Origin: Bacilli bacterium
GTDB lineage: Bacteria; Bacillota_I; Bacilli_A; RFN20; CAG-826
Direction of reading: 5' to 3'
Assembly (NCBI GenBank): GCA_045132035.1
Contig: JBGURM010000092.1
Span: 7,641 to 71,640, forward strand
Length of the DNA: 64,000 bases
Part shown: positions 1,960 through 63,293 of the stretch, in pieces
Layout of the letters: every line of letters starts with the position of its first letter
Position numbering within the stretch: the stretch's first letter is position 1
Program-made: the position numbers and the translations under genes
Notes under the pieces: generated by a model
Seen by the model: only the letters and a program-made list of their open reading frames with translations
Told to the model about the DNA's origin: nothing
Database searches by the model: none

Positions 1960-3093
1960 CTAGTAATAAACTCTACTCTTCGACACTTTAGATTGAATAA
2001 GTGTGAAGATAAGAATCGCAGCGAACAATAGGACTGCACCGGCAGCAGCGTATTGAATCATTGTTTGGCTATCATGTTCAAGAATATCGTAAACATAATA
2101 GACAACTGTTAATAAGTTCTTTTCAGTAGAGGCACCACCACTACCTGCGGTACTTGGAGCACCAAAGATAGAAATGATGGAGTTATATTCCTTAAACGCT
2201 CCGATAAATCCAGTAATCATTAAGTATAAGATTTGAGGAGAGAGCAATGGAACGGTGATTCTAAGGAGGACTTTTCCTTTAGAAGCACTATCGATTTGAG
2301 CGGCTTGATAATATTGTTTATCAACGCCTTGAAGACCTGATAATAAGATTAAAATCTTAAATGGAATGGAGTTCCAAACAATGTAGATACAAAGTGGCAC
2401 CATCGCGGTCCAGTGTTCAGCGTTTTGAATCCATGCGATATTTGTATGGAACAAATTGTTAATAATACCTTGTCTATCAAAGATAACTGCGAAGACCATA
2501 CCAATAGCGATACCATTAGTAACATAAGGTAAGAAGAACACTGTTTGTAAGAATTTTTGGAACCATTTAATGGAGTTAAGAGCAACTGCGATAATAAGAG
2601 CTAAGAAGATTGATAATGGAACAGTCACGAATGCGATAAGAACTGTGTTAGGGATCGCAAAGTTCACAAAGTTAGTTTCTGTCGCTCTTTGTCCACTAGC
2701 GTTGATATATTCTTTTAAGCCAAGAACAACGCCAAAGTTATCAAGTGTCAATCCAGTACCATATCCTTTAATATAGCTATACTCTTTCGCGAACGCGATA
2801 TAGATTGTATTAATTAAAGGATAGAGCAAGAAGATTGCCACCAAGATGATAACTGGTGCTAGATATAACCATGCTTTCCAGTTATTTTTGCTAGCAACAT
2901 CATCAATTCCACTGACACGATAGCTCTTTGTTGGTCTTTTTCCAACTAAGCGAACCACCACGTCTTTTTCAGAATCATACCCTTCAGAAATATCTGGGAT
3001 TCCAGTGTCAAATAAGGATTCCGCAGCTCCAGGTTGATCAGTAGAAGCTGATTTTTTGCTATTGAAAAGTTTTTTAATTTTTTCTAATAACAT
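1960..3093 (-). CDS. ABC transporter permease (MalF/UgpA-like) with an N-terminal extension
   Basis: EAA loop AAQIDSASKGKVLLRITVPLLSP and multiple TM helices. Sits 9 nt downstream of the ATPase gene. Confidence 0.8.
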   Translation of the reverse strand: MLLEKIKKLFNSKKSASTDQPGAAESLFDTGIPDISEGYDSEKDVVVRLVGKRPTKSYRVSGIDDVASKNNWKAWLYLAPVIILVAIFLLYPLINTIYIAFAKEYSYIKGYGTGLTLDNFGVVLGLKEYINASGQRATETNFVNFAIPNTVLIAFVTVPLSIFLALIIAVALNSIKWFQKFLQTVFFLPYVTNGIAIGMVFAVIFDRQGIINNLFHTNIAWIQNAEHWTAMVPLCIYIVWNSIPFKILILLSGLQGVDKQYYQAAQIDSASKGKVLLRITVPLLSPQILYLMITGFIGAFKEYNSIISIFGAPSTAGSGGASTEKNLLTVVYYVYDILEHDSQTMIQYAAAGAVLLFAAILIFTLIQSKVSKSRVYY

Positions 3094-3102
3094 ATGGCCT
3101 CC

Positions 3103-5013
3103 TTATTTTGTGTAAATTCTTTCTTCTGTTTCGCCATCAAAGATGAAGATTTTATGAGGTTTAACTTTAAATGCAACTGGTCCTGGAAGAACTGTGTCAT
3201 CAGCAGAAATAATTGCTTTGAAAGTTGGTTTTGTACAATTTTCGTTATTAGCAACAACACTAATATCACGACCCATAACTTGGATCATTTCACAATTAGC
3301 ATGTAAGACATCTTTGTCTTTATCACTTGCAAGAACAAATCCTTCTGGTCTAATAGCGACATAGACATCTTTATTACCAATTTCTTCATTTGCAGTATAA
3401 ACACAATCGTTACCAACAAAGACTTTCTTTCCTTCAACACGTCCATAGAAAACGTTGATTGGTGGAGTTCCTAAGAATTGAGCAACGAATAAGTTAGCTG
3501 GTGAATTGTAAACATCTTGTGGTTTACCCATTTGTTGCATTTCACCGAGTTTCATAACAACGATTTGATCGGAAATGGACATCGCTTCTTCTTGGTCATG
3601 GGTAACGAAGACAGAAGTAATACCTGTTTCTTGTTGAATACGTCTAATTTCTTCACGTGTTTGTAATCTTAAACGAGCGTCTAAGTTAGATAATGGTTCA
3701 TCTAATAACAAGACGCGTGGGTGTTTAACTAAAGCACGAGCAATAGCGACACGTTGTTGTTGACCACCAGAAAGTTGTGATGGTTTACGTTGTAAATATT
3801 CATCAACTTGAACGAGTTTTGCAGTTTCGTAAACGATATCGCGTCTTTCTTCTTTGGTGAGCTTACGGTGGCTGATTGCTTGAGAAACTGCAGTTTCAAC
3901 ATCAACAAGTTGGAATTTTTCCGCTAATTCTTTTAATAATTCAGCAGATTGTTCTTGTGATGTCTTTAATAACTTAAAGTAAATTTTAGTGTGTTCTTTA
4001 TCAAAGTAAATTTTGAAATCAGCAACGCCACATTTATGTTCCGCTAAGAATCTCTTAACGTTTTGAGTAAGTTCTCTATTGTTAACTGAAGATACTGTGA
4101 AATAAGGATTTTCATATGGATAAGAGGCTTTAACGGCTTCAAACCATTCATTAATTCTTAAGTGTTTGACACCTAAAACACGCGCCATGATTTCATAACC
4201 ATGTTGTGTCTTGGTGATAACTACTTCAGCTGGTTTTCCAAATTCACTAGAGGTTGAATTGAAGAGTTTGATTGTTTCATCAATCGAACTTGTTGAGAAG
4301 TTCTTTCCTAAACGGCCACGGAAAGAAGCATCGATTGTTTCATTTTCAGTGATTATTTCCACTGTCGCACGGAATGTTGTATCAAATAAAGCGTCACTTG
4401 ATTGAACTTCATCTTCGCTTTCAAGTTTAACATCAATAATCTTGTTAACATTATCTGCGAATAACGCTTTTGATGTTTTGGAAACATTAACTAATTCAAC
4501 TTTAATTTCTAAGTTGCGTTCTTTTTCTTGAACATCGAGCTTGAATTGTTTTCTTGAATAACCGGTTTTAGCCGCGAGTGATTGGAAAGCTTTTTTAATT
4601 CCATTAACATCATCGTCTTCCTTCATTTGATAGGAATAAGCAAGATGATATGTGAAGAATGTTTCAAGAGGAACTTCGACTTGTAAACTTGTTAATGGGA
4701 ATTCAATATTCTTATAAATTGTCATATGAGGATATAATGCGTAGTTTTGGAAAACTAAACCAATACCTCTTTTTTCTGGAGATAAGTTGGTAACTTCTTG
4801 ATCACCAAACCAAACTTCACCAGATGTTGGAACTTGTAATCCTGAAATCATATAAAGTGTAGTTGATTTACCACATCCTGATGGGCCAAGAAGACCGACA
4901 AGTGTGCCATCATCAACAACAAAATCCAAGTCCTTAACAGCGATGGTATCACGAATATTCTTTTTGGCATCGCCTGGGAAGATTTTTGTTAAACTCTTAA
5001 TCTTAATTTCCAT
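3103..5013 (-). CDS. ABC transporter ATP-binding protein (MalK/UgpC-like), 636 aa, with a ~280-aa insertion between the Q-loop and the ABC signature
   Basis: Walker A GPSGCGKST, Q-loop VFQNYALYPH, signature LSGGQQQRVAIARAL at residue ~414, Walker B LLLDEPLSNLDA, H-loop VTHDQ, and a C-terminal MalK-type regulatory domain. Confidence 0.85.
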   Translation of the reverse strand: MEIKIKSLTKIFPGDAKKNIRDTIAVKDLDFVVDDGTLVGLLGPSGCGKSTTLYMISGLQVPTSGEVWFGDQEVTNLSPEKRGIGLVFQNYALYPHMTIYKNIEFPLTSLQVEVPLETFFTYHLAYSYQMKEDDDVNGIKKAFQSLAAKTGYSRKQFKLDVQEKERNLEIKVELVNVSKTSKALFADNVNKIIDVKLESEDEVQSSDALFDTTFRATVEIITENETIDASFRGRLGKNFSTSSIDETIKLFNSTSSEFGKPAEVVITKTQHGYEIMARVLGVKHLRINEWFEAVKASYPYENPYFTVSSVNNRELTQNVKRFLAEHKCGVADFKIYFDKEHTKIYFKLLKTSQEQSAELLKELAEKFQLVDVETAVSQAISHRKLTKEERRDIVYETAKLVQVDEYLQRKPSQLSGGQQQRVAIARALVKHPRVLLLDEPLSNLDARLRLQTREEIRRIQQETGITSVFVTHDQEEAMSISDQIVVMKLGEMQQMGKPQDVYNSPANLFVAQFLGTPPINVFYGRVEGKKVFVGNDCVYTANEEIGNKDVYVAIRPEGFVLASDKDKDVLHANCEMIQVMGRDISVVANNENCTKPTFKAIISADDTVLPGPVAFKVKPHKIFIFDGETEERIYTK

Positions 5014-52877: not shown

Positions 52878-53369
52878 TTAATAATTAGTTTCTTGTCTTA
52901 CATGATTTTCTTTTAATTTGAGGTAATAAGCCTCTTTAGCCTCTAACCAGCTATATCCGAGTTTGAAAAGGGCACGTAAGTAGCTTTTAAAGGCTAATAT
53001 ATAGTTAGATTCAGTCTGACTTTGATAGAAAATAGAGGTTAATTCATAAGTCTTTAAGAGGTTATCTGTTAGACTCATTTCATCGTCAAATACTTCTATC
53101 TCATCTACGATGTAATTTTGATCAATACCAAGTGAGAGAAGGAAATGTAACCCATCAGCGAATTCATCAAGAACTCTTTCTTTAGATTCTGGACCTTTAT
53201 TAGACCAGTATTTAAATGTCCTTGTCGCGTTAGCGAATTCTCCTAACTCAACAAGTAGAGAAAGTGTTCTCTTATTTCTTGTTGATTCATAAGTGACATT
53301 ATGATTTTTAGCGATTTCTTCGTCGAGCTCTCTTTGCTTGATATATAAATCTTTTAAATCACAAATCAT
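52878..53369 (-). CDS. All-alpha NTP pyrophosphohydrolase, dimeric-dUTPase (dUTPase_2)-like
   Basis: LVELGEFANATRTFKYWSNK...VLDEFADGLHFLLSLGI and C-terminal AYYLKLKENHVRQ. ATG overlaps the glgP stop (TAATG). Confidence 0.5.
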   Translation of the reverse strand: MICDLKDLYIKQRELDEEIAKNHNVTYESTRNKRTLSLLVELGEFANATRTFKYWSNKGPESKERVLDEFADGLHFLLSLGIDQNYIVDEIEVFDDEMSLTDNLLKTYELTSIFYQSQTESNYILAFKSYLRALFKLGYSWLEAKEAYYLKLKENHVRQETNY

Positions 53370-55771
53370 TAACTGATTTTCTCCAACTTCCAAATATCTC
53401 TAACGTATTCTTCGATTGTTCTATCACTTGAGAAGTAACCACTATTAGCGATATTCATTAAGCACATTTGAGCCCATTTCTTCTTATCTTGATATAAGGT
53501 AGAAGCTTTCTCTTGTGCTTCGATATAACTTGGTAAATCTTTTAAGATGAAATATTGGTCATTTCCATTAAAGATTTCATCGAAAATCATTCTGAATTTG
53601 TCTTTACGATAATTTGTCCACTCTCCATCAAATAAGGACTCCATAATCGCGTGTATACGCGCATCATTGTTATACATATCCCATGGAGAATATGTTCCAT
53701 TACGGACCATTTCTTCAACTTCATTATCTCTTAAACCAAAGATGATGGCGTTTTCTTCTCCAGCGTTAGCGACGATTTCAATATTCGCACCATCCATTGT
53801 GCCTAAAGTAATCGCTCCATTCATCATGAACTTCATATTTGAAGTACCACTAGCTTCTTTACCAGCAGTAGAGATTTGTTCAGAGATATCCGCAGCAGGA
53901 ATGATTAATTCCGCTAAAGAGACCCCATAGTTTTCAATAAAGACAACTTTTAAGAATGGAGAGATCTCTGGGTCATTATTCACTACTTCAGCAACCGCTA
54001 AGATTAATTCAATAATCTTCTTTGCATAGACATAACTTGGAGCGGCTTTCGCACCAAAGATATATGTATGAGGATAGATTCTAAAGTTAGGATCACTCTT
54101 CATTCTTTGATATAAGTAGATGATGTGGAAGACATTCATTAATTGACGTTTATAAGCGTGTAAACGTTTAATTTGAACATCAAAGATTGAATTAACATCA
54201 ACATCAATTCCATTATGTTCTTTAATATATGCAGCAAGTTTCTTTTTGTTTTCAAGTTTGATTGCTTGAAGTTCATCTAAGACTTTGTCATCATTCTTAT
54301 ATTTTTCAAAAGCCTTAATCTTGCTCATGTCAGTAATCCAAGATGTGCCAATTTTGCTACTGATGAGTTTAGTTAATTCTGGATTACAGTTCACTAACCA
54401 TCTTCTATGAGTAACACCATTCGTCTTGTTATTGAATTTTTCAGGCATATATTTATAGAATTCTTTGAAAGTAATATTCTTTAAGATTTCTGTATGTAAT
54501 GCCGCAACACCATTAACTGAGAAAGCTGTATAAATAGCTAAGTTAGTCATATGAATTTGACCATCTTTAATGATGTTCATTTGATGTCTTTCCCATTCAG
54601 GAATGTTATTAGCGGTCATTTCTAAATTAAATCTACGATTAATTTCTTCAATGATCATATAACAACGTGGAATGAGGTGTTGGACATAATTGATTGGCCA
54701 TTTTTCAAGAGCTTCCACCATAACAGTGTGATTGGTGTAGGCCATACATTTAGTAACTTCATTCCATGCGTCTTCCCATTCCATGTCATATTCATCAAGC
54801 ATGATTCTCATCATTTCAGGAATAGCTAAAATTGGGTGAGTGTCATTGAGTTGGAAGACATAATCATCGTGAATTCCAATTAAAGTATTATGGTGACGAT
54901 AGAAACTATTTAAAGCACTTTGCAAACCAGCAGAAACTAAGAAATATTGTTGTCTTAATCTTAAGATTCTTCCGGCTTCAGTAGAATCATCAGGATATAA
55001 GCCATGGCATAATTCCTCTAAAGCAATACAGTAATCATTAAATGAAACTGATTTTGGAAGAGGTTTACTACTTGGTTCAGCGTTCCAAAGTCTTAAAGTA
55101 TTGGTAACGTGGTTTTGATAGCCGATAACAGGCATATCATAAGGAACCGCTCTAACAATTAAAGCGTCAGCGGTTTTAATTCCATATGTGCCGTCTTTCT
55201 TTTGATAGCTTTCTGGATGTCCGTAGAATTTAACTTCAACCGCATATTTCGCTCTTCTAACTTCCCAAACGTTACCGTTAGTTAACCATTGGTCTGGTAA
55301 TTCTTTTTGCTTTCCATCAGCAATCTTTTGACGGAAGAAACCATATTCATAACGGATACAGTTACCGTGACCGATATAACCTAAAGACGCGATAGAATCT
55401 AAGAAACAGGCTGCTAGTCTTCCTAAACCACCATTACCAAGTCCAGCGTCACTCTCTTCATTTTCAAGAGTGTTTAAGTCGATTCCTAAATCATCTAAGC
55501 CTTCTTTGATAATTTGGTATAAACCAAGGTTTTGGATATTGTTTGATAGCAAACGTCCGATTAAGAACTCCATTGAGAAGTAGATTAAGCTTCTTTTTCC
55601 TTGTGTAGATTCAAGGTGGGTTTTACTCCAGTCCACGTTTGCGTAGTCTCTAATCATTTCTCCTAAGATTGTGTATTGTTCGTTCGCACAGCTATTAGCA
55701 ACATCGACACCATATCTTTGGAGTAAACGAGATTGAAATTCGTTTTTAAAATCTTTTTTCGATGCAAACAT
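53369..55771 (-). CDS. glgP: Glycogen/maltodextrin phosphorylase (GT35)
   Basis: PLP site EASGTSNMKFMMNGA. 800 aa. Confidence 0.92.
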   Translation of the reverse strand: MFASKKDFKNEFQSRLLQRYGVDVANSCANEQYTILGEMIRDYANVDWSKTHLESTQGKRSLIYFSMEFLIGRLLSNNIQNLGLYQIIKEGLDDLGIDLNTLENEESDAGLGNGGLGRLAACFLDSIASLGYIGHGNCIRYEYGFFRQKIADGKQKELPDQWLTNGNVWEVRRAKYAVEVKFYGHPESYQKKDGTYGIKTADALIVRAVPYDMPVIGYQNHVTNTLRLWNAEPSSKPLPKSVSFNDYCIALEELCHGLYPDDSTEAGRILRLRQQYFLVSAGLQSALNSFYRHHNTLIGIHDDYVFQLNDTHPILAIPEMMRIMLDEYDMEWEDAWNEVTKCMAYTNHTVMVEALEKWPINYVQHLIPRCYMIIEEINRRFNLEMTANNIPEWERHQMNIIKDGQIHMTNLAIYTAFSVNGVAALHTEILKNITFKEFYKYMPEKFNNKTNGVTHRRWLVNCNPELTKLISSKIGTSWITDMSKIKAFEKYKNDDKVLDELQAIKLENKKKLAAYIKEHNGIDVDVNSIFDVQIKRLHAYKRQLMNVFHIIYLYQRMKSDPNFRIYPHTYIFGAKAAPSYVYAKKIIELILAVAEVVNNDPEISPFLKVVFIENYGVSLAELIIPAADISEQISTAGKEASGTSNMKFMMNGAITLGTMDGANIEIVANAGEENAIIFGLRDNEVEEMVRNGTYSPWDMYNNDARIHAIMESLFDGEWTNYRKDKFRMIFDEIFNGNDQYFILKDLPSYIEAQEKASTLYQDKKKWAQMCLMNIANSGYFSSDRTIEEYVRDIWKLEKIS

Positions 55772-55820: not shown

Positions 55821-57665
55821 TTATTTCTTTTTAGTTGTTTTTTTTGGCTCTTCTTTTGGTGGTTCTTCAAGTTTGAAGATCATCGCTCCTAAGGAGGCTA
55901 ATTTGATGGTGATATATCCACCATAACTTCCTAAAGGTGCCCCGTTATATTGGTTTGCGCCACCATAGATATCTTTATCACTATTAAAGATTTCAACATA
56001 TCTTCCTTCTTTTTCCACTGGAATACCAAAGTTCTCGTAGAAGTTAGGAGTCATGTTATAAACAAAGATTAATGTTTCACCATCAACTCTTCTAGTGAAA
56101 GCGAAAACACTATCATTACTATTATCAACGATTAACCATTTAAATCTTTCAGGATTATGTTCCTCAAAATACATCGCTGGATGCGCTCTATAGATGAGGT
56201 TTAAATCATGGTAGAGTCTAGAAATGGAATCATGAGCAGGGAATTGTTTTAATTCCCATGGTAATGATTTAGCTTCATTCCATTCGTCAAATGAACCGAA
56301 TTCGTTACCCATGAAGTTGAGTTTCTTTCCTGGGTGACCGTATTGGTAAGTGATTAAGTTTCTGAGTAAAGCGAATTTTTGATAATAATCGCCCCACATC
56401 TTATTTAATAATGTTCCTTTACCGTGTACGACTTCGTCGTGAGAGAATGGTAATAAGAAATTATCACTATAGAAATATGCCATTGAGAAAGTTAATTTAT
56501 TATGGTCATATTTCTTATAAACTGGATCTAATGCGTAATATTTAAGAGTGTCATTCATCCAGCCTAAATCCCACTTGTAATCGAATCCAAGACCGATATC
56601 AGTTGGTTTAGTAACTCCTGGATAATCACTACTATCTTCCGCAATCATCATCACTGAATCATGAGCTATATGAATCTTACCGTTAAGACGTTTAACGAAT
56701 TCAATAGCGCCATCATTAGTGCCATTTCTCTTATCTCCGTTATAGAAGATGATATTGCTAACCGCGTCGATTCTAATACCGTCCGCGTGATATTTATCAA
56801 TATAGAAATTAATCGCGCTCATTAAGAAGCTTCTAATTGGATCTTTTCCTAAGTCAAATTGATAACTTCCCCAAGGAGACACTCTCCATTTGTTGTTATA
56901 TTCAAATAAGCGTGTTCCATCATATTCCACTAAAGCCCATGGGTCGTTAGCGAAGTGAACAGGAGCAAAGTCAATGATAACTCCAATACCTGCTTGGTGT
57001 AATCTATCAATTAATGACATGAGTTGGAAAGGATTGCCATATCTTGGGTCACAACTATAGAATCCAGTTGCTTGATATCCCCAGCTTCCTAAAAATGGGT
57101 GCATCATGATTGGCATAAATTCCACGTGAGTGTAGCCCATGCCTGTCACATAAGGAATTAATTCATCCGCTAATTCTTCATAAGAAGAGAATCTTCCTTC
57201 GTGCTTTTTAAGCCAGCTACCAGCGTGCATCTCATAAATTGACATTGGTTTGTCAAAGTTACGAGTTCTTTCTTTTAAGAATTTTTCATCATGCCAAATA
57301 AAGTCTCTAATGTCGAAAAGTCTCGAACAAGTGCCAGGTGCAACTTCACTAAAGAACGCATATGGGTCAATTTTATCTACATATACTCCTTTCGCATTCT
57401 TGAAGTGATATTTGTAGGCTTGATAACTTTGAAGTCCAGGAATGAATGTTTCCCAAACACCACAGTCATCGATCTTGTTCATTTTGTGGGCGTACATACT
57501 CCAATTATTGAAATCACCAATAACTGAAACATCACTTGCCATTGGAGCGTATAATCTAAAAACTACTCCGTTTTGGTCTCCTCTTTTCTCAAAGTGAGCT
57601 CCGAAGTAATTATAGGCTTCAATGGTTTGGCCCATTAAATAATCATAAAGTAATCCGAATGCCAT
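55821..57665 (-). CDS. glgB: 1,4-alpha-glucan branching enzyme (GH13)
   Basis: GH13 catalytic regions (GVIIDFAPVHF, ADGIRIDAV, FMGNEFG). Confidence 0.85.
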   Translation of the reverse strand: MAFGLLYDYLMGQTIEAYNYFGAHFEKRGDQNGVVFRLYAPMASDVSVIGDFNNWSMYAHKMNKIDDCGVWETFIPGLQSYQAYKYHFKNAKGVYVDKIDPYAFFSEVAPGTCSRLFDIRDFIWHDEKFLKERTRNFDKPMSIYEMHAGSWLKKHEGRFSSYEELADELIPYVTGMGYTHVEFMPIMMHPFLGSWGYQATGFYSCDPRYGNPFQLMSLIDRLHQAGIGVIIDFAPVHFANDPWALVEYDGTRLFEYNNKWRVSPWGSYQFDLGKDPIRSFLMSAINFYIDKYHADGIRIDAVSNIIFYNGDKRNGTNDGAIEFVKRLNGKIHIAHDSVMMIAEDSSDYPGVTKPTDIGLGFDYKWDLGWMNDTLKYYALDPVYKKYDHNKLTFSMAYFYSDNFLLPFSHDEVVHGKGTLLNKMWGDYYQKFALLRNLITYQYGHPGKKLNFMGNEFGSFDEWNEAKSLPWELKQFPAHDSISRLYHDLNLIYRAHPAMYFEEHNPERFKWLIVDNSNDSVFAFTRRVDGETLIFVYNMTPNFYENFGIPVEKEGRYVEIFNSDKDIYGGANQYNGAPLGSYGGYITIKLASLGAMIFKLEEPPKEEPKKTTKKK

Positions 57666-57772
57666 ACAACATTATTATAAATAATGATTAAAACTATGTG
57701 AATAACAAACAAAAAAATATTCTATATTTCTTTGTTAATTTATATAGTTATATCTCCCAATAATTTTTACCT

Positions 57773-57808
57773 ATTTTAAAATAGGCTATTTCTAAATAGG
57801 CTAATTAT
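57773..57808 (-). promoter_or_regulatory. 36-bp promoter/operator module upstream of glgB: two adjacent 14-bp palindromes overlapping a TTTAGA -35 box
   Basis: CTATTTTAAAATAG-G-CTATTTCTAAATAG-GCTAATT. It is 35/36 identical to the copy at 59192-59227. Confidence 0.6.
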
Positions 57809-59168
57809 ACAAATCTGTTAATGTTATTAAAATAGAATCAGTATTTGATTTTAAATCATCTTTAAAACCACTTTTTGATGCAAAAGCGTATTTGGCAACA
57901 GTAAAAGGCAAATCCTTCCACTGTGTTTTTTCTTCGTTATAATCACTAATACCAACTTTGGAGTCAGTGTATTTACATTCAATAGGAATTAATCCTTCTT
58001 TAGTGGATAAGACAACATCAAATTCGCGATTAATGTTTCCACTATTATAGTAAAGTCGACCAATTGAATCGAAAAGTGGGAGTTTAATAGAATTAACTCT
58101 TATCGCATATTCTTTAACCACTTCTTCAAATTTGGTTGGTAAATAACTTTCATATAATTCTTTTTTTACATAATTTTGGAAAAAGACCTCAGTCGGCATG
58201 CTTGATCTCACTCTTTGATATTTGAAAATAAAAGAATAATAAAACGACATAAGATTATCTTTAATTTGATATAGAGCTTTTCTTTCAGATTTAGCGTTAA
58301 CTTGATAAGATTTATCAATTAAATCCATCTCTTCTAATTTTCTTAAATATCGAGTAATGTTGTCTTTAGAAGGATCACCCATTCTTTCATTCAAATCGGT
58401 ATATTTTCTTATACCTCTAGCGATTAATTCAAATATAGAATTAATATTTGCTTCTTTTTCAAGCTCTCCAACAATTGTCGCTACTGCTTCTTTTTCAAAG
58501 AAAGAATCAGCTTTAATAAACTCATTTAATAAATTCTCTTCAAAAGGAATTGAATAATCAATATGTTTTAAATTAAAGGCAGTTCCACCAAAGACAGCAT
58601 AATATTTAAATTTTTCATCTTCACTAATATTTCCCATGAATTTAGAAGCTTCATAATAATTAAATGTTCTTAACATTATCTCTTCATTAAATCTTCCATA
58701 TAATGGAGATTTTTTATCGATAATTCTTTTCATGGTTTCAATATAAGAACCGCATAAAATAATCGTTATCTTCGCGTTATTTTTATGTAGCTCAATTGCT
58801 TTTTGTAAATAAGAATCAATTGAGTCGTTAGACTTCTTTAAAAATGAATATTCATCAATAAATAATACAAAGGGATTAGTTTTACTATATTCAAATAAAG
58901 ACGCATAGAATTCATAGAAATCTCTTGGATGGAAAGATACATTATTCATAAATCTTCCGGCTTCAAAAGAAAACTCTTCTAAGTTAATACTTTCATTTAC
59001 TTCTCTCGCTAATAACGGTAACACTCTAACGTTTTCTAACTCTATTGCTTTATTAATTAATTCTGTTTTTCCAATTCTTCTTCTTCCATATACAAGCACA
59101 GCTTGAAATGAATCTAGTTTTAATCTTCTTCTAATTTTATTTAATTCATTTTCGCGTCCAATAAACAT
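57801..59168 (-). CDS. AAA+ ATPase of the PF01637/DUF234 type ('ATP-binding protein'), function unknown
   Basis: Walker A GRRRIGKTEL, Walker B LFIDEYSFL, C-terminal DUF234-like region. GAGG RBS. Confidence 0.6.
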   Translation of the reverse strand: MFIGRENELNKIRRRLKLDSFQAVLVYGRRRIGKTELINKAIELENVRVLPLLAREVNESINLEEFSFEAGRFMNNVSFHPRDFYEFYASLFEYSKTNPFVLFIDEYSFLKKSNDSIDSYLQKAIELHKNNAKITIILCGSYIETMKRIIDKKSPLYGRFNEEIMLRTFNYYEASKFMGNISEDEKFKYYAVFGGTAFNLKHIDYSIPFEENLLNEFIKADSFFEKEAVATIVGELEKEANINSIFELIARGIRKYTDLNERMGDPSKDNITRYLRKLEEMDLIDKSYQVNAKSERKALYQIKDNLMSFYYSFIFKYQRVRSSMPTEVFFQNYVKKELYESYLPTKFEEVVKEYAIRVNSIKLPLFDSIGRLYYNSGNINREFDVVLSTKEGLIPIECKYTDSKVGISDYNEEKTQWKDLPFTVAKYAFASKSGFKDDLKSNTDSILITLTDLYN

Positions 59169-59191
59169 AAAATATATCCTCGTATATTAGT

Positions 59192-59227
59192 CTATTTTAA
59201 AATAGGCTATTTGTAAATAGGCTAATT
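59192..59227 (-). promoter_or_regulatory. Second copy of the 36-bp palindromic promoter/operator module, upstream of the AAA ATPase gene
   Basis: CTATTTTAAAATAGGCTATTTGTAAATAGGCTAATT with -35 TTTACA, a 17-nt spacer, -10 TAGACT, GAGG RBS, then ATG. Confidence 0.6.
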
Positions 59228-59249
59228 TTTTTAAAATATTTTTATATAC

Positions 59250-59277
59250 AAAAAGACCCTTTCAATTAAGAAAGAGT
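59250..59277 (-). terminator. Rho-independent terminator after malQ
   Basis: GACCCTTTC-loop-GAAAGAGTC with a T-run on the minus strand. Confidence 0.55.
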
Positions 59278-59290
59278 CATATTGTTAATT

Positions 59291-60721
59291 TTAATTAAAC
59301 CATTTAGGATCTGGGTATTTGACTTCGTTAATAAATGAGAAGTCTTTTAATTTCCAAGTCCAGTTTGGTTCTCCTACTGTTCCAGGCCAATTCATTCTTC
59401 CGGAGTTATCAAGTTTAATAACATCTTGAAGTTGGAAGATAGTCATCATTGAAGGCATTGTGAAGATATATTTAACAATTGCATCATATAATCCTTCATC
59501 ATAATTAACACCTAATCTATTAGCGATAAATCTTCTTTGATCATCATTAAGATTTAAATACCAACCATATAATGTTTCATTATCATGAGTTCCTGGATAG
59601 ACAATTTGTCTATTAGTGGATTCTTGCTTCAAATCAAAGATTGTGAATTCACAAATGAACATACCAGGAAGATTATAATGGTCTCTTAATTCAAGAACTT
59701 CAGGTCTAAGATCACCTAAATCTTCCGCAATTAAATTGATCTTTGGATATTTCTCGTAGAGTTTATCAAAGAAGTCTTCTCTAGGACCAATCTTCCACAC
59801 TCCATTTTTAGCGGTTTCTTCTCCAGCTGGAATGACATAATATGTATCGAACGCTCTAAAGTGGTCAATACGTAAATAGTCACACATACTAGCGAGATAT
59901 CCAATACGATCAATGAATAACTTATATCCATTTTTCTTCATTCTTTCAAAGTTATATATTGGAGATCCCCATAATTGACCAACATCACTAAAAGCATCTG
60001 GCCCTACTCCGCCAACTTCAAAAAGTTTGTTGTCTGGTCCAATTTGGAATTGATTTCTATTTAGCCAGCATTCCACTCCATCAAAGCCAACATAGAAAGG
60101 CATATCACAAATGATTTTAATACCTTTTTTAGCAGCGTATCTTCTAACTTTATTCCACTGTTTAAACGCTAAATATTGTAAGAAGATAATGAAGTTAACT
60201 TGGTCTTTATATCTTCTTGGTGGCTTATTATGGTATTCATAATAATCAAGATATTCTTCATCCCATTCATTCCACTGCTTGTTATCATTCATTTCTTTGA
60301 ATACTTCAAATGTCGCGTATTCTTTAACCCAAGGGTTAAGGGTTTTAAATTTATGAAGAACCTCACTATGGTTTTTCATAAACTTGCGAAACGCTAAACC
60401 TAGCTCTCTTTTTTTGAATTCTCCAACATCATAATAATCAACTTTAATGCAGTCTGGATTATGAGCAGGTACCTTTGGTAATAAACCCATCTTACTCACA
60501 TAATCTAGTGAGATATATCTATATTCCAAAGCCTTGGAACAAGTAGACATATATGGTGAATATCCAGGTCCAAGAGGATTAAGAGGAAGGGTCTGCCAAT
60601 ATTCATAATGATTGTCGCTTAGCCAATCAATAAATTTGTAGCATGGATCACCAAAATCTCCGATTCCATGGTTTCCTGGTAAGGAAGAAACGGCAAGTAA
60701 AATACCTAAATGTTTTTTCAT
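59291..60721 (-). CDS. malQ: 4-alpha-glucanotransferase (amylomaltase, GH77)
   Basis: N-terminal GILLAVSSLPGNHGIGDFG typical of GH77. Confidence 0.85.
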   Translation of the reverse strand: MKKHLGILLAVSSLPGNHGIGDFGDPCYKFIDWLSDNHYEYWQTLPLNPLGPGYSPYMSTCSKALEYRYISLDYVSKMGLLPKVPAHNPDCIKVDYYDVGEFKKRELGLAFRKFMKNHSEVLHKFKTLNPWVKEYATFEVFKEMNDNKQWNEWDEEYLDYYEYHNKPPRRYKDQVNFIIFLQYLAFKQWNKVRRYAAKKGIKIICDMPFYVGFDGVECWLNRNQFQIGPDNKLFEVGGVGPDAFSDVGQLWGSPIYNFERMKKNGYKLFIDRIGYLASMCDYLRIDHFRAFDTYYVIPAGEETAKNGVWKIGPREDFFDKLYEKYPKINLIAEDLGDLRPEVLELRDHYNLPGMFICEFTIFDLKQESTNRQIVYPGTHDNETLYGWYLNLNDDQRRFIANRLGVNYDEGLYDAIVKYIFTMPSMMTIFQLQDVIKLDNSGRMNWPGTVGEPNWTWKLKDFSFINEVKYPDPKWFN

Positions 60722-60857: not shown

Positions 60858-62012
60858 TTATTTAGAAATCTTTTTCTTTTTGAAGAAGAAGAATCCACCG
60901 ATAGCAGTAGCCGCAACAAGTGAGACAAGAACAATTGTCATTGTGTTGTTGTTGCTATTGTTATTTTCAGCAACGAACCCAATATTTGCTCTACCATTTG
61001 GAGTAAATGTTCCTGCTGAAGGATTAAATGTTTCTCCATTAGCAAGAGCCCATTTGCCTAATCTTTCAATTGCATCTGGGAAGCTTTCGTTTAGTTGTGC
61101 TAGCGCATAAGAGTTTGCATAAATTGCAGTATAGCCTTGTTTGGCTGCGTTATACAACGATTTACAACCATCAGAATCTCTTCCTTCGCCAGCGGCTTTA
61201 GAGGTGGTTCTGAAGTCCATAAGATTTTGACTGAAATTATGAGCCCAAACATAGTTAATGTTACTCCACCAAGTATTTTTCCCATCTAAAACTGTTTCAT
61301 TGTTAGCGAGAACATAACAGTTATTATTTCCACCATTTGTTGGTCTTGAAATTGTATCTGTCTTATTTGCATCCCCACCAACATTAAAAATGAACCTATT
61401 ATAAGCGTTTAGTAAATCAGCATAATAAACTCTTCCATTTCCGGCGCTTTCTGCTGTAACACCCATATTAACGCCAGACCACTGAGTGCTATATGCTGTG
61501 TCCCCTTGCTCGTTCCACGCATGTACTTTGACCTCACCATTGCCAAACTTATTGTCATAATCATACAAATATATTCTTAATGTCTCAGGTTCCATTGTTT
61601 TCCATCCATTATTATAAAAATAATGTGTAGAAGATGTAGGCGCGGATAAATTGTCAGATTGCATTCCATGATTATCATTATGGAATTGAATATTAGAATA
61701 AAGTGGCTGATCATTAGTTGGATGCCAAGCAAAAACAGCTTGTCCAAATTCATTATCATATGCCCACTTCATTTGCCATGCGGAAGCCCAAGTAGTTCCT
61801 GGCGTTCCATTGCCATCCCATGTATGAATTCTAACTACATTGTCACCCCAATCAGATGGTCTGGTGAAATAAATATAAAGGCTTGTGTCAGTACTAGCTG
61901 CTTCTGCTTCTTCAACTTTTGCTTCTTTAACAGCGCTAGCACCAGTAAAAGCACCGACACCTAAAAGAGTTACAAAAGCAGCAGTTAAAAACAATTTGCT
62001 TATCTTTTTCAT
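60858..62012 (-). CDS. Cell-surface protein with signal peptide, two CBM25/26-like starch-binding-type repeats and a C-terminal TM/K-rich anchor
   Basis: LYIYFTRPSDWGDNVVRIHTWDG...TTW and LRIYLYDYDNKFGNGEVKVHAWN repeats. C-terminal AIGGFFFFKKKKISK. Confidence 0.5.
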   Translation of the reverse strand: MKKISKLFLTAAFVTLLGVGAFTGASAVKEAKVEEAEAASTDTSLYIYFTRPSDWGDNVVRIHTWDGNGTPGTTWASAWQMKWAYDNEFGQAVFAWHPTNDQPLYSNIQFHNDNHGMQSDNLSAPTSSTHYFYNNGWKTMEPETLRIYLYDYDNKFGNGEVKVHAWNEQGDTAYSTQWSGVNMGVTAESAGNGRVYYADLLNAYNRFIFNVGGDANKTDTISRPTNGGNNNCYVLANNETVLDGKNTWWSNINYVWAHNFSQNLMDFRTTSKAAGEGRDSDGCKSLYNAAKQGYTAIYANSYALAQLNESFPDAIERLGKWALANGETFNPSAGTFTPNGRANIGFVAENNNSNNNTMTIVLVSLVAATAIGGFFFFKKKKISK

Positions 62013-62210: not shown

Positions 62211-63293
62211 TTATTTTGTTAGTCTTTTCTTTTTAAAGAAGAAGAATCCACCAACAGCTAATGCTGATACTGTAGCAATTATTGCAATTGAAGAATAGCT
62301 ACTTGTTTCAACTTCGAACGGAACAACAACTGCAGCTCCATCAACAACTTCTGGATTTGGATTGCGTCCTAATGCGGCTGCCCAATCACAATACCTCTTG
62401 TATGCCGCAGCAAACATATCATTCGTGCTTAATTCAGCATAAACTTCTTGAGTAAGATTCTCTTTCGCTGGTCCAAAATAAGTGTTGCATTGTCCTGGCA
62501 CATTTGAATCCATATGCATATATGTGTCAATCCAAGATTGAACTTTAACATCAAGAAGCGATTCCCAACTATAACCATATGAGTTCCATGCTTGACCATT
62601 ATATCCGCAAACATCGTTTGCTTGTTGTTGATGCGAATCACTATAATCGTTTGATGTAAATTTTAGTCTATTATACTTGCATGGAATAGCAGGAGTTTTG
62701 TAAACTTTTCCTCCAGTATTTTCAACAACTGTCATTTCATATCCAGGCCATGCAATTGGATAAGAGCTGTCATTATTGTTGTCTGCAAAAACATGAAGAT
62801 TTGTAGAAGAAATAACTTCGGTTTTATTTAAATAAATATAATATTCTCTTGTTAAATCTTCAAATGTCCAATTACCGGAAATGCCGCTTGAATTAACAAC
62901 ATAGGCTGTATGCTCCGTTAGAGAATTATAGTCAAAATCAATAGCTGATGTTTGTGAAGCACCTTCTTTAATATTGTTGTTAAATATAACTTTATTTGGA
63001 ATAAAGTCTAATGAAAATTCAAAATGATAAACTCCTTGAGAATGTTCGTTAGTATATTCAAAAACTCCAGCCTTTCCTGGCCAAGTTGTAGTTTTGTTGC
63101 TACTGTCATTAACATCCCAGAGATGAACAGCTAGTTGATTCCAACCAGTAGCATTTGTAACGTGAAACTTGAAATTATAGGTTGCTGCTTCTGCCTTCTC
63201 AACTTTTGCATCTCTACCAGCGTTAACACCAGCAAACACACCGACGCCAAGAAGAGCGGCCATGCAGGTTGTTAATAATAATCCTTTTTTCAT
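62211..63293 (-). CDS. Paralogous cell-surface protein: signal peptide, CBM-like N-domain, C-terminal GGFFFFKKKRLTK anchor
   Basis: The N-terminus MKKGLLLTTCMAALLGVGVFAGVNAGRDAKVEKAEAAT parallels the neighbouring gene's MKKISKLFLTAAFVTLLGVGAFTGASAVKEAKVEEAEAAS. YNFKFHVTNATGWNQLAVHLWDV CBM-like segment. AAGGAG RBS. Confidence 0.5.
   Translation of the reverse strand: MKKGLLLTTCMAALLGVGVFAGVNAGRDAKVEKAEAATYNFKFHVTNATGWNQLAVHLWDVNDSSNKTTTWPGKAGVFEYTNEHSQGVYHFEFSLDFIPNKVIFNNNIKEGASQTSAIDFDYNSLTEHTAYVVNSSGISGNWTFEDLTREYYIYLNKTEVISSTNLHVFADNNNDSSYPIAWPGYEMTVVENTGGKVYKTPAIPCKYNRLKFTSNDYSDSHQQQANDVCGYNGQAWNSYGYSWESLLDVKVQSWIDTYMHMDSNVPGQCNTYFGPAKENLTQEVYAELSTNDMFAAAYKRYCDWAAALGRNPNPEVVDGAAVVVPFEVETSSYSSIAIIATVSALAVGGFFFFKKKRLTK

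Follow-up and report, generated by a model that had tools for sequence, protein, structure and literature searches.

Why does a gene for a DUF234-type ATPase interrupt a set of alpha-glucan genes, and what are the two nearly identical palindromic sites that bracket it? We examined this question in a 64-kb stretch of contig JBGURM010000092.1 from a Bacilli bacterium (the window), in which the ATPase gene lies on the minus strand between malQ and glgB, with one 36-bp box ahead of its start codon and another at its stop codon. The explanation that we favor, and consider moderately probable, is that positions 57771-59227 (1.46 kb) represent one horizontally acquired, self-regulated module of the defense type, the product of which would bind its own iterons.

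Two palindromic boxes bracket the ATPase gene

The 36-mer CTATTTTAAAATAGGCTATTT(C/G)TAAATAGGCTAATT occurs on the plus strand at 57771-57806 and 59192-59227. The 35/36 identity reported in the initial annotation holds, and the left copy, first placed at 57773-57808, lies 2 nt further left. The lone C/G mismatch affects one of the two central bases of the second palindrome. Also borne out is the pair of 14-bp palindromes (CTATTTnnAAATAG) in each copy; their starts are 15 bp apart, and GCTAATT follows. The core CTATTTNNAAATAG was found four times in the window, all within the two 36-mers, against an expectation of 0.02 ± 0.14 from 100 dinucleotide-preserving shuffles. At up to 3 mismatches, the 36-mer itself was found twice, compared with 0.00 expected, and there is no third copy of the box elsewhere in the 64 kb.

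Read in the direction of the gene, the upstream box (59192-59227, minus strand) is AATTAG-CCTATTTACAAATAG-CCTATTTTAAAATAG, and its end is 23 nt from the ATPase start codon. Nearly all of a promoter-like TTTACA-17-TAGACT (59189-59217, minus strand) lies inside this box, so that a protein bound there would occlude it. The gene's own promoter-like sequence is thus covered by a symmetric, repeated site, as would be expected of an operator. A Shine-Dalgarno-like GAGGA (59177-59181, minus strand), read from the sequence, lies 8 nt upstream of the ATG at 59168. At three loci with bacterial homologs (L001, L005, and L007; L numbers denote the loci compared with the window), a −35 hexamer TTCAAA lies in unit 2, with TATAAT or CATAAT 16 nt downstream. 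Where copies of the canonical box differ, they do so mainly at the two central bases, as expected for a site bound by a protein with 2-fold symmetry.

The downstream box (57771-57806, minus strand) reads AATTAG-CCTATTTAGAAATAG-CCTATTTTAAAATAG in the gene direction and overlaps the 3′ end of the ATPase gene, which terminates in TAT AAT TAG; the AATTAG flank of the box provides both the final codon, AAT (Asn), and the stop codon, TAG (57803-57801). The −35 hexamer of the glgB promoter follows 69 nt downstream of this box. A −35 and a −10 element had been assigned to each copy; the pair in the upstream box stands as a consensus match, and the −10-like TAGGTA of the downstream box fails a promoter scan.

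A 21-nt inverted repeat (59182-59202 and 59229-59249; 81% complementary, GTATAT...ATATAC) surrounds the upstream box, where the RNA/DNA fold z-score is −3.2 on account of its arms; no comparable repeat flanks the downstream box. We rejected a known RNA family for the boxes, as an Rfam scan of 57 to 60 kb returned only a chance microRNA match (E = 0.95), and a terminator for the downstream box, which folds as RNA at −12 kcal/mol (z = −1.15) and has no U-run.

The box accompanies one ATPase family across genomes

We scanned 185,579 species, each represented by one genome, for exact matches to CTATTTNNAAATAGGCTATTTNNAAATAG and obtained 9 loci, one per genome. At 6 of the 9, the box lies 20 to 70 nt upstream of a gene with ATPase_2 and DUF234 domains. 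The bacterial loci (Holdemanella, an Acholeplasmatales metagenome-assembled genome [MAG], Bacteroides uniformis, and a Lachnospiraceae MAG) encode ATPases 51 to 56% identical to the window protein, and the archaeal loci (a Natrialbaceae archaeon and Halorubrum), with a GC content of 53 to 58%, encode ATPases 26% identical to it. Two of the other three matches lie at contig ends, and one, in Haloterrigena, is followed by an IS605-type TnpB. A finished Natronorubrum plasmid carries three canonical units in front of an ATPase homolog, so that the archaeal matches cannot be put down to contamination. The same double box was found upstream of homologs at L001, L003, L005, L006, L007, L009, L010, L012, L014, L107, L109, and L112. 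There were no matches to the canonical box in 2.9 million viral contigs, and the idea that the box mimics a phage sequence therefore finds no support.

Several haloarchaeal loci depart from this arrangement. At L004 (Haloterrigena sp. H1, 3050-3420), an orphan canonical box of four 15-bp units is directly followed by an IS200/IS605-type hairpin end and TnpB, and no ATPase gene is left within the 8-kb locus. A Halorubrum sp. PV6 plasmid (L105, 1380-1491) carries upstream units of ATATTCTAGAATAT at ∼15-bp spacing, a two-position variant of CTATTTnnAAATAG; the protein belongs to the same haloarchaeal clade, and these units may be a snapshot of specificity drift. A second haloarchaeal subfamily, with the N terminus MTFYDR, has the upstream motif GTCATTATCG..ATAATCATTA (L006, 2930-5120; L103, L104, and L106, near 1400-1500).

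A 15-bp spacing is shared by subfamilies with different sites

The canonical box was absent from all 80 of the more distant metagenomic homolog loci (26 to 36% identity), nearly all of which have other palindromic or tandem motifs at the corresponding place. An upstream palindrome or tandem repeat beyond 95% of shuffles was detected at 66 of 86 loci, compared with 8 of 90 coding controls. We also tested the 120 nt upstream of each gene for tandem periods of 10 to 30 bp. A period of exactly 15 bp scored best in 60 of the 93 upstream regions; the same was true of 13 of 465 shuffles (3%), 10 of 91 regions downstream of the genes, and 7 of 72 regions lying 500 nt farther upstream. These locus counts (60/93 and 66/86) are not independent, because many of the loci are close relatives; nonetheless, they include more than 10 distinct motif types.

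The sequence of the repeat tracks the protein cluster (ACTCGG..CCGAGT, TTAGTAA, TCAATTTGAA, ACTCGTAAG, and others), and the ATPase is therefore the only gene consistently linked to the site. The site travels with the gene and, outside the haloarchaeal clade, changes with the subfamily, as would an operator. Because the ATPase gene alone always adjoins the site, its product is the obvious candidate for the protein that binds it. An operator for a symmetric protein, as first proposed, is still what the sequence most readily suggests. Among the candidate regulators named at that time, the ATPase itself is now favored, since the box co-occurs with its homologs in unrelated genomes and changes in sequence with the subfamily.

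The protein is a candidate antiphage ATPase-nuclease

The ATPase gene (57801-59168, minus strand) lies in a low-GC insert and encodes 455 amino acids comprising an ATPase_2 (AAA+/STAND-like) domain, a winged helix, and a DUF234 (PD-(D/E)XK) domain. Both Pfam matches are well above their cutoffs (ATPase_2 PF01637, E = 2.9e-15, 57 bits versus 33; DUF234 PF03008, E = 1.5e-10, 41.8 bits versus 22.5). Walker residues G33/K34 and D105/E106 are invariant in alignments of 24 and 30 sequences, as are E397 and K399 of the D-ExK motif, and D384 is conserved in at least 90%. No exact copy of the window protein turned up in public assemblies, and the 99%-identical P0001 protein stood in for it.

DUF234 has been classed as a PD-(D/E)XK nuclease domain (PMC3424549). 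In addition to the two Pfam domains (COG1672), the protein matches the PADLOC PDC-S27 profile (PDLC04984; E = 4e-40, residues 2-419), which makes it a member of PDC-S27, an unvalidated single-gene candidate defense family that combines an ATPase with PD-(D/E)XK (PMC12988326). The earlier statement that DUF234-type ATPases have no assigned function is thus outdated on both counts, the nuclease domain and the candidate defense family. NCBIfam has no family for this protein. Two recent surveys describe PDC-S27 as an ATPase fused to PD-(D/E)XK that is very common in archaea and has candidate status (PMC12988326; 10.1101/2025.11.08.687337); it is reported in ∼71% of haloarchaeal genomes (10.1101/2025.11.08.687337), with thousands of members in bacteria and thousands in archaea (PMC12988326).

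An AlphaFold2 model of the window protein (predicted local distance difference test score, 91.4) places the winged helix at approximately residues 236-300, a feature for which archaeal homologs give MarR_2 and HTH_24 matches. Fold searches indicated that the body formed by the ATPase and winged helix resembles Orc1/Cdc6. Homologs adjoin AbiEii together with a Schlafen-like ATPase, or Wadjet JetABCD. By its domains and family, we consider the gene a candidate antiphage gene.

The downstream box is old and kept in several lineages

Three homologs, 99%, 67%, and 63% identical to the window protein, show the same box-gene-box arrangement, with the second box starting in the stop codon. The context of the first (L010/L011) is that of the window; the second (L012/L013) lies beside genes for an RDD protein and a sugar ABC transporter, and the third (L014/L015) beside addAB, an insertion sequence (IS), and a DUF4143 ATPase gene. 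At 63 to 69% protein identity, the second box keeps both palindromes, and the adjacent noncoding DNA has no similarity left. Between the 99%-identical loci, the 105-nt spacer beside the second box has 3 changes and the box has 0.

Other loci show partial loss or displacement. Only the first half-site of the downstream box remains at L112 (85% identical to L014), followed by a Wadjet operon, and at L109 the second box has been displaced to 2 kb away by an abiEi/abiEii insertion with a ∼190-nt duplication. From this distribution, the second box is of long standing in the clade; several lineages have kept it, and others have lost it. Because of its conservation, we favor a functional site over a decaying scar, and its role would most likely be cooperation with the upstream box or insulation.

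The sequences at these altered boxes are worth recording. At L109 (7378-9480), abiEi and abiEii lie between two ∼190-nt direct repeats, the second of which is followed by the downstream box of the ATPase. The box flank AAAATTAG starts at the end of the first repeat, which places the insertion exactly at the box edge. The foreign DNA at the truncated box of L112 (1684-1720) and at the displaced box of L109 (7595-7640) starts with a similar TCCAAGG...GTTTTTAG, which could be a shared end of inserted defense modules or a chance resemblance.

The module entered a glucan locus, and glgB retains a promoter of its own

On the minus strand, malQ (59291-60721; product, Glyco_hydro_77), the ATPase gene, glgB (55821-57665), and glgP (53369-55771) follow one another in this order, all confirmed by Pfam. 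A terminator-like hairpin with a T-run follows malQ (59255-59278, minus strand; 9-bp stem, 4 GC pairs, TTTTTGT tail). This hairpin marks the upstream limit of the module, and the ATPase gene is therefore not cotranscribed with malQ. The GC content is 25 to 29% over the ATPase gene, versus 33 to 39% on either side. In relatives with malQ 80 to 84% identical, a four-gene ABC-transporter block separates malQ from glgB, and both the ATPase gene and the box are absent. Accordingly, the initial view that the ATPase gene is an insertion into the glucan gene set is upheld by the different four-gene, box-less block in relatives and by the dip in GC. Direct adjacency of malQ and glgB was seen in no relative examined, the ABC block being there instead, and no empty site with one box was found among the relatives with 80 to 84% identical malQ.

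The best promoter-like sequence in the region, TTCACA-17-TATAAT (57702-57674, minus strand; 11/12), ends 8 nt before the glgB ATG. Relatives that lack the box have TGTATAAT just before the glgB ATG, in the same position as the −10 element of glgB in the window. The upstream sequence of glgB at L016-L022 is unrelated to that of the window apart from the −10 element, and no CTATTTnnAAATAG at up to 2 mismatches was found near glgB at these loci. The assignment of the downstream box as the glgB promoter is thus superseded by this better match, by the element in relatives, and by the failed scan of TAGGTA. Nor can the boxes be junctions made by the present insertion, since box-gene-box already exists in 63 to 69% identical homologs in other contexts; the pair therefore arrived as part of the module. 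Coregulation of glgB and the ATPase gene through a shared operator would be at most a side effect, given that relatives with neither box nor ATPase regulate glgB with a −10 element in the same position. As part of the explanation that we favor, and with the same moderate probability, the module would have no specific tie to glycogen metabolism and glgB would keep its own promoter. For the 64-kb window, this removes a false lead, as the glycogen genes are not under a novel palindromic operator.

Two further features of the glucan locus were observed. The −10 element of glgB (TATAAT or TGTATAAT) lies only ∼5 to 8 nt before the ATG, with no Shine-Dalgarno sequence visible (window, 57665-57702; L016, 12440-12471; L019, 12370-12399), and the glgB mRNA in this lineage may be leaderless or nearly so. 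At 60858-62012 and 62211-63293 (minus strand), the window encodes two paralogous secreted proteins with similar signal peptides and a C-terminal GGFFFFKKK(K/R) hydrophobic anchor, one of which carries a CBM26 starch-binding module. They are probably cell surface starch-binding proteins of the glucan locus.

A probable self-regulated module and its alternatives

Under the explanation that we favor, a single gene flanked by two copies of its cognate site would have been dropped between malQ and glgB. Its product, an Orc1/Cdc6- and STAND-like ATPase with a winged helix and a nuclease-type PD-(D/E)XK (DUF234) domain, would bind each palindrome as a dimer through the winged helix and oligomerize along the units spaced at 15 bp. 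Occupancy of the upstream site would cover TTTACA-17-TAGACT, so that the gene represses itself, and this self-repression would fix the amount of a potentially toxic ATPase-nuclease at a low level. The downstream copy would be a second cognate site, which most likely bridges or loops across the gene with the upstream site, or else serves as a bound roadblock that insulates the neighbors.

Several observations weigh against this explanation. The promoter hexamers of the upstream box are consensus matches only (9/12), and several subfamilies have their boxes in the 5′ untranslated region or over the ribosome-binding site, where they may have a role at the RNA level. Haloarchaeal and bacterial proteins that bear the box were not found to be closer to each other in the winged helix, sharing only 23 to 25% identity there; the haloarchaeal clade has the identical box, yet subfamilies with other boxes are the nearer relatives of its proteins, in the winged helix as well. 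This combination is awkward for coevolution of one helix with one site. The downstream box is absent from clade members L108, L113, and L003 and from the 51 to 56% identical group L001, L005, and L007, and it is therefore dispensable. Finally, whole-chain matches in the fold search covered the ATPase and winged helix only, and the PD-(D/E)XK fold of the C-terminal domain is a prediction.

The strongest competing explanation, still appreciably less probable than the self-regulated module, is that only the upstream copy functions and the downstream copy is a neutral recombination scar, left when a box-gene unit duplicated in tandem, or when a circular box-gene copy integrated into a resident box by a Campbell-type single crossover, with subsequent loss of the second gene. 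Members with unrelated boxes do have direct repeats of the upstream region downstream of the gene (L040, 45 nt; L044, 44 nt; L098, 28 nt), and at L088 a 76-nt repeat is followed by an 85%-identical remnant of the N terminus of a second ATPase. L025 has a C-terminal remnant upstream, a paralog at L006 (L006b) lies between direct repeats that take in its own first ∼14 codons, and other island modules lie between long direct repeats (L058 and the ∼190 nt around abiEi/abiEii at L109). These repeats in unrelated subfamilies indicate that duplication or single crossover at the box is a recurrent route to such pairs, and the clade members without a second box fit a scar as well. The retention of both palindromes beside noncoding DNA that has lost similarity argues against it, as do the unchanged box next to a changed spacer in the 99%-identical loci and the lack of a second-ATPase remnant after the downstream box in the window. 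The repeat boundary also coincides with the stop codon in two unrelated subfamilies (including L044), a coincidence that random duplication endpoints would not predict. At L058 (2870-5560), an ATPase homolog and a gene for a 313-amino-acid protein are enclosed by a 75- to 100-nt direct repeat that matches the sequence ahead of the following gene, which is Sua5/TsaC-like, as if an insertion had duplicated the promoter region of its target. We regard as unlikely a shared operator/promoter through which the ATPase, as a MalT-like STAND regulator, would coregulate itself and glgB-glgP. Its prediction for glgB fails in the box-less relatives described above, the downstream −10-like TAGGTA fails the promoter scan, and box-gene-box also stands beside unrelated genes, with homologs in defense islands. 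Moreover, a single box locus per genome in the species scan leaves no regulon apparent.

Marginally less likely again are boxes that act as the ends or recombination sites of a self-mobilizing cassette, cut or paired by the ATPase-nuclease. In three contexts, the conserved unit begins and ends precisely with a box, the protein can be read as a TnsC/Orc-like ATPase with a TnsA-type PD-(D/E)XK domain (PMC3424549), and elements lie exactly at box edges (IS605 in L004, abiE in L109, and jet after the truncated box in L112). Against such a cassette, the species scan found one copy per genome, the 64 kb contain no paralog or further box, the sequence just outside the boxes is not duplicated (no target site duplication), and the module encodes no strand-transfer enzyme or integrase, with Pfam detecting neither a DDE nor a serine or tyrosine recombinase there. 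Most homologs have the upstream box only, no empty site with a single box was found, and the box is absent from the viral contigs. A transposon or IS with terminal repeats was likewise rejected on the absence of a recombinase, target site duplication, and multiple copies. The resemblance of the fold to Orc1/Cdc6 on origin DNA, together with repeated sites adjoining an initiator-like gene, as at archaeal origins, also raises the idea that the boxes are iterons of an origin-like element bound by the adjacent protein. We think this highly improbable: the cumulative GC skew falls monotonically over 53 to 63 kb without inflection, no AT-rich unwinding element lies between inverted sites, haloarchaeal genomes have several copies of the family, which is also found in bacteria that use DnaA, and the nuclease domain would be unexplained.

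The self-regulated module could also be part of something broader, although we hold this extension to be doubtful. The boxes may be the very DNA that the ATPase-nuclease family is built to recognize, with assembly on 15-bp-spaced iterons and action between two cognate sites in the manner of two-site NTP-dependent nucleases. If so, the box at the gene's own promoter would double as a sensor, as the repressor would be titrated away by invading DNA with such sites and expression would be released. A gene between two sites could then be looped, excised, or moved as a cassette, and the recurrent box-gene-box arrangement and the insertions at box edges would be explained.

Significance and comparison with known systems

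ATPases of the PDC-S27/DUF234 type are among the commonest unvalidated defense candidates. A subfamily-specific site with 15-bp spacing provides a concrete predicted DNA ligand for the family, in one case identical from Bacillota to haloarchaea. The spacing suggests a mode of protein assembly on DNA, and the site offers an annotation marker for the module and its boundaries. The full-text literature, with subscription journals outside coverage, describes no conserved upstream element for DUF234/PDC-S27 genes and no 15-bp iterons or gene-flanking sites for PDC-S27. What appears to be new is a predicted self-operator with a fixed 15-bp iteron register, cross-domain conservation, and a second site that brackets the gene.

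The window protein is a member of PDC-S27 by its profile match, both Pfam domains, its ATPase and PD-(D/E)XK makeup, and homologs beside AbiE and Wadjet. The module differs from descriptions of that family, which mention no upstream box, 15-bp iterons, or flanking sites. It resembles Orc1/Cdc6 and its origin recognition boxes (ORB) in having sites beside an initiator-like gene and in fold, but it is not a member of that system: it lacks an origin signature, carries an extra C-terminal nuclease-type domain, and belongs to a family that is found in bacteria, is multicopy, and is patchily distributed like defense genes.

McrBC pairs an AAA+ motor with a PD-(D/E)XK nuclease, binds DNA in a sequence-directed manner, and acts on two sites up to a few kilobases apart. 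It may therefore serve by analogy as a model for a protein with two cognate sites 1.4 kb apart, although no sequence or fold evidence ties it specifically to the window protein. McrB and McrC are also separate proteins that recognize methylated DNA and have no sites around their own genes.

The C-boxes of restriction-modification systems are tandem palindromic operators of ∼35 bp that lie on the controller's own promoter, are subfamily specific, and set the level of a dangerous nuclease. The box in the window is analogous in consisting of tandem palindromes on the promoter-like site of its own gene and in being subfamily specific, and it would likewise set a nuclease level, but it is not a C-box. 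C proteins are Xre-type helix-turn-helix proteins of ∼80 amino acids that regulate a separate nuclease gene. By contrast, the putative binder in the window is a 455-amino-acid fusion of ATPase, winged helix, and nuclease, with a fixed 15-bp spacing of its sites and a second site after the gene.

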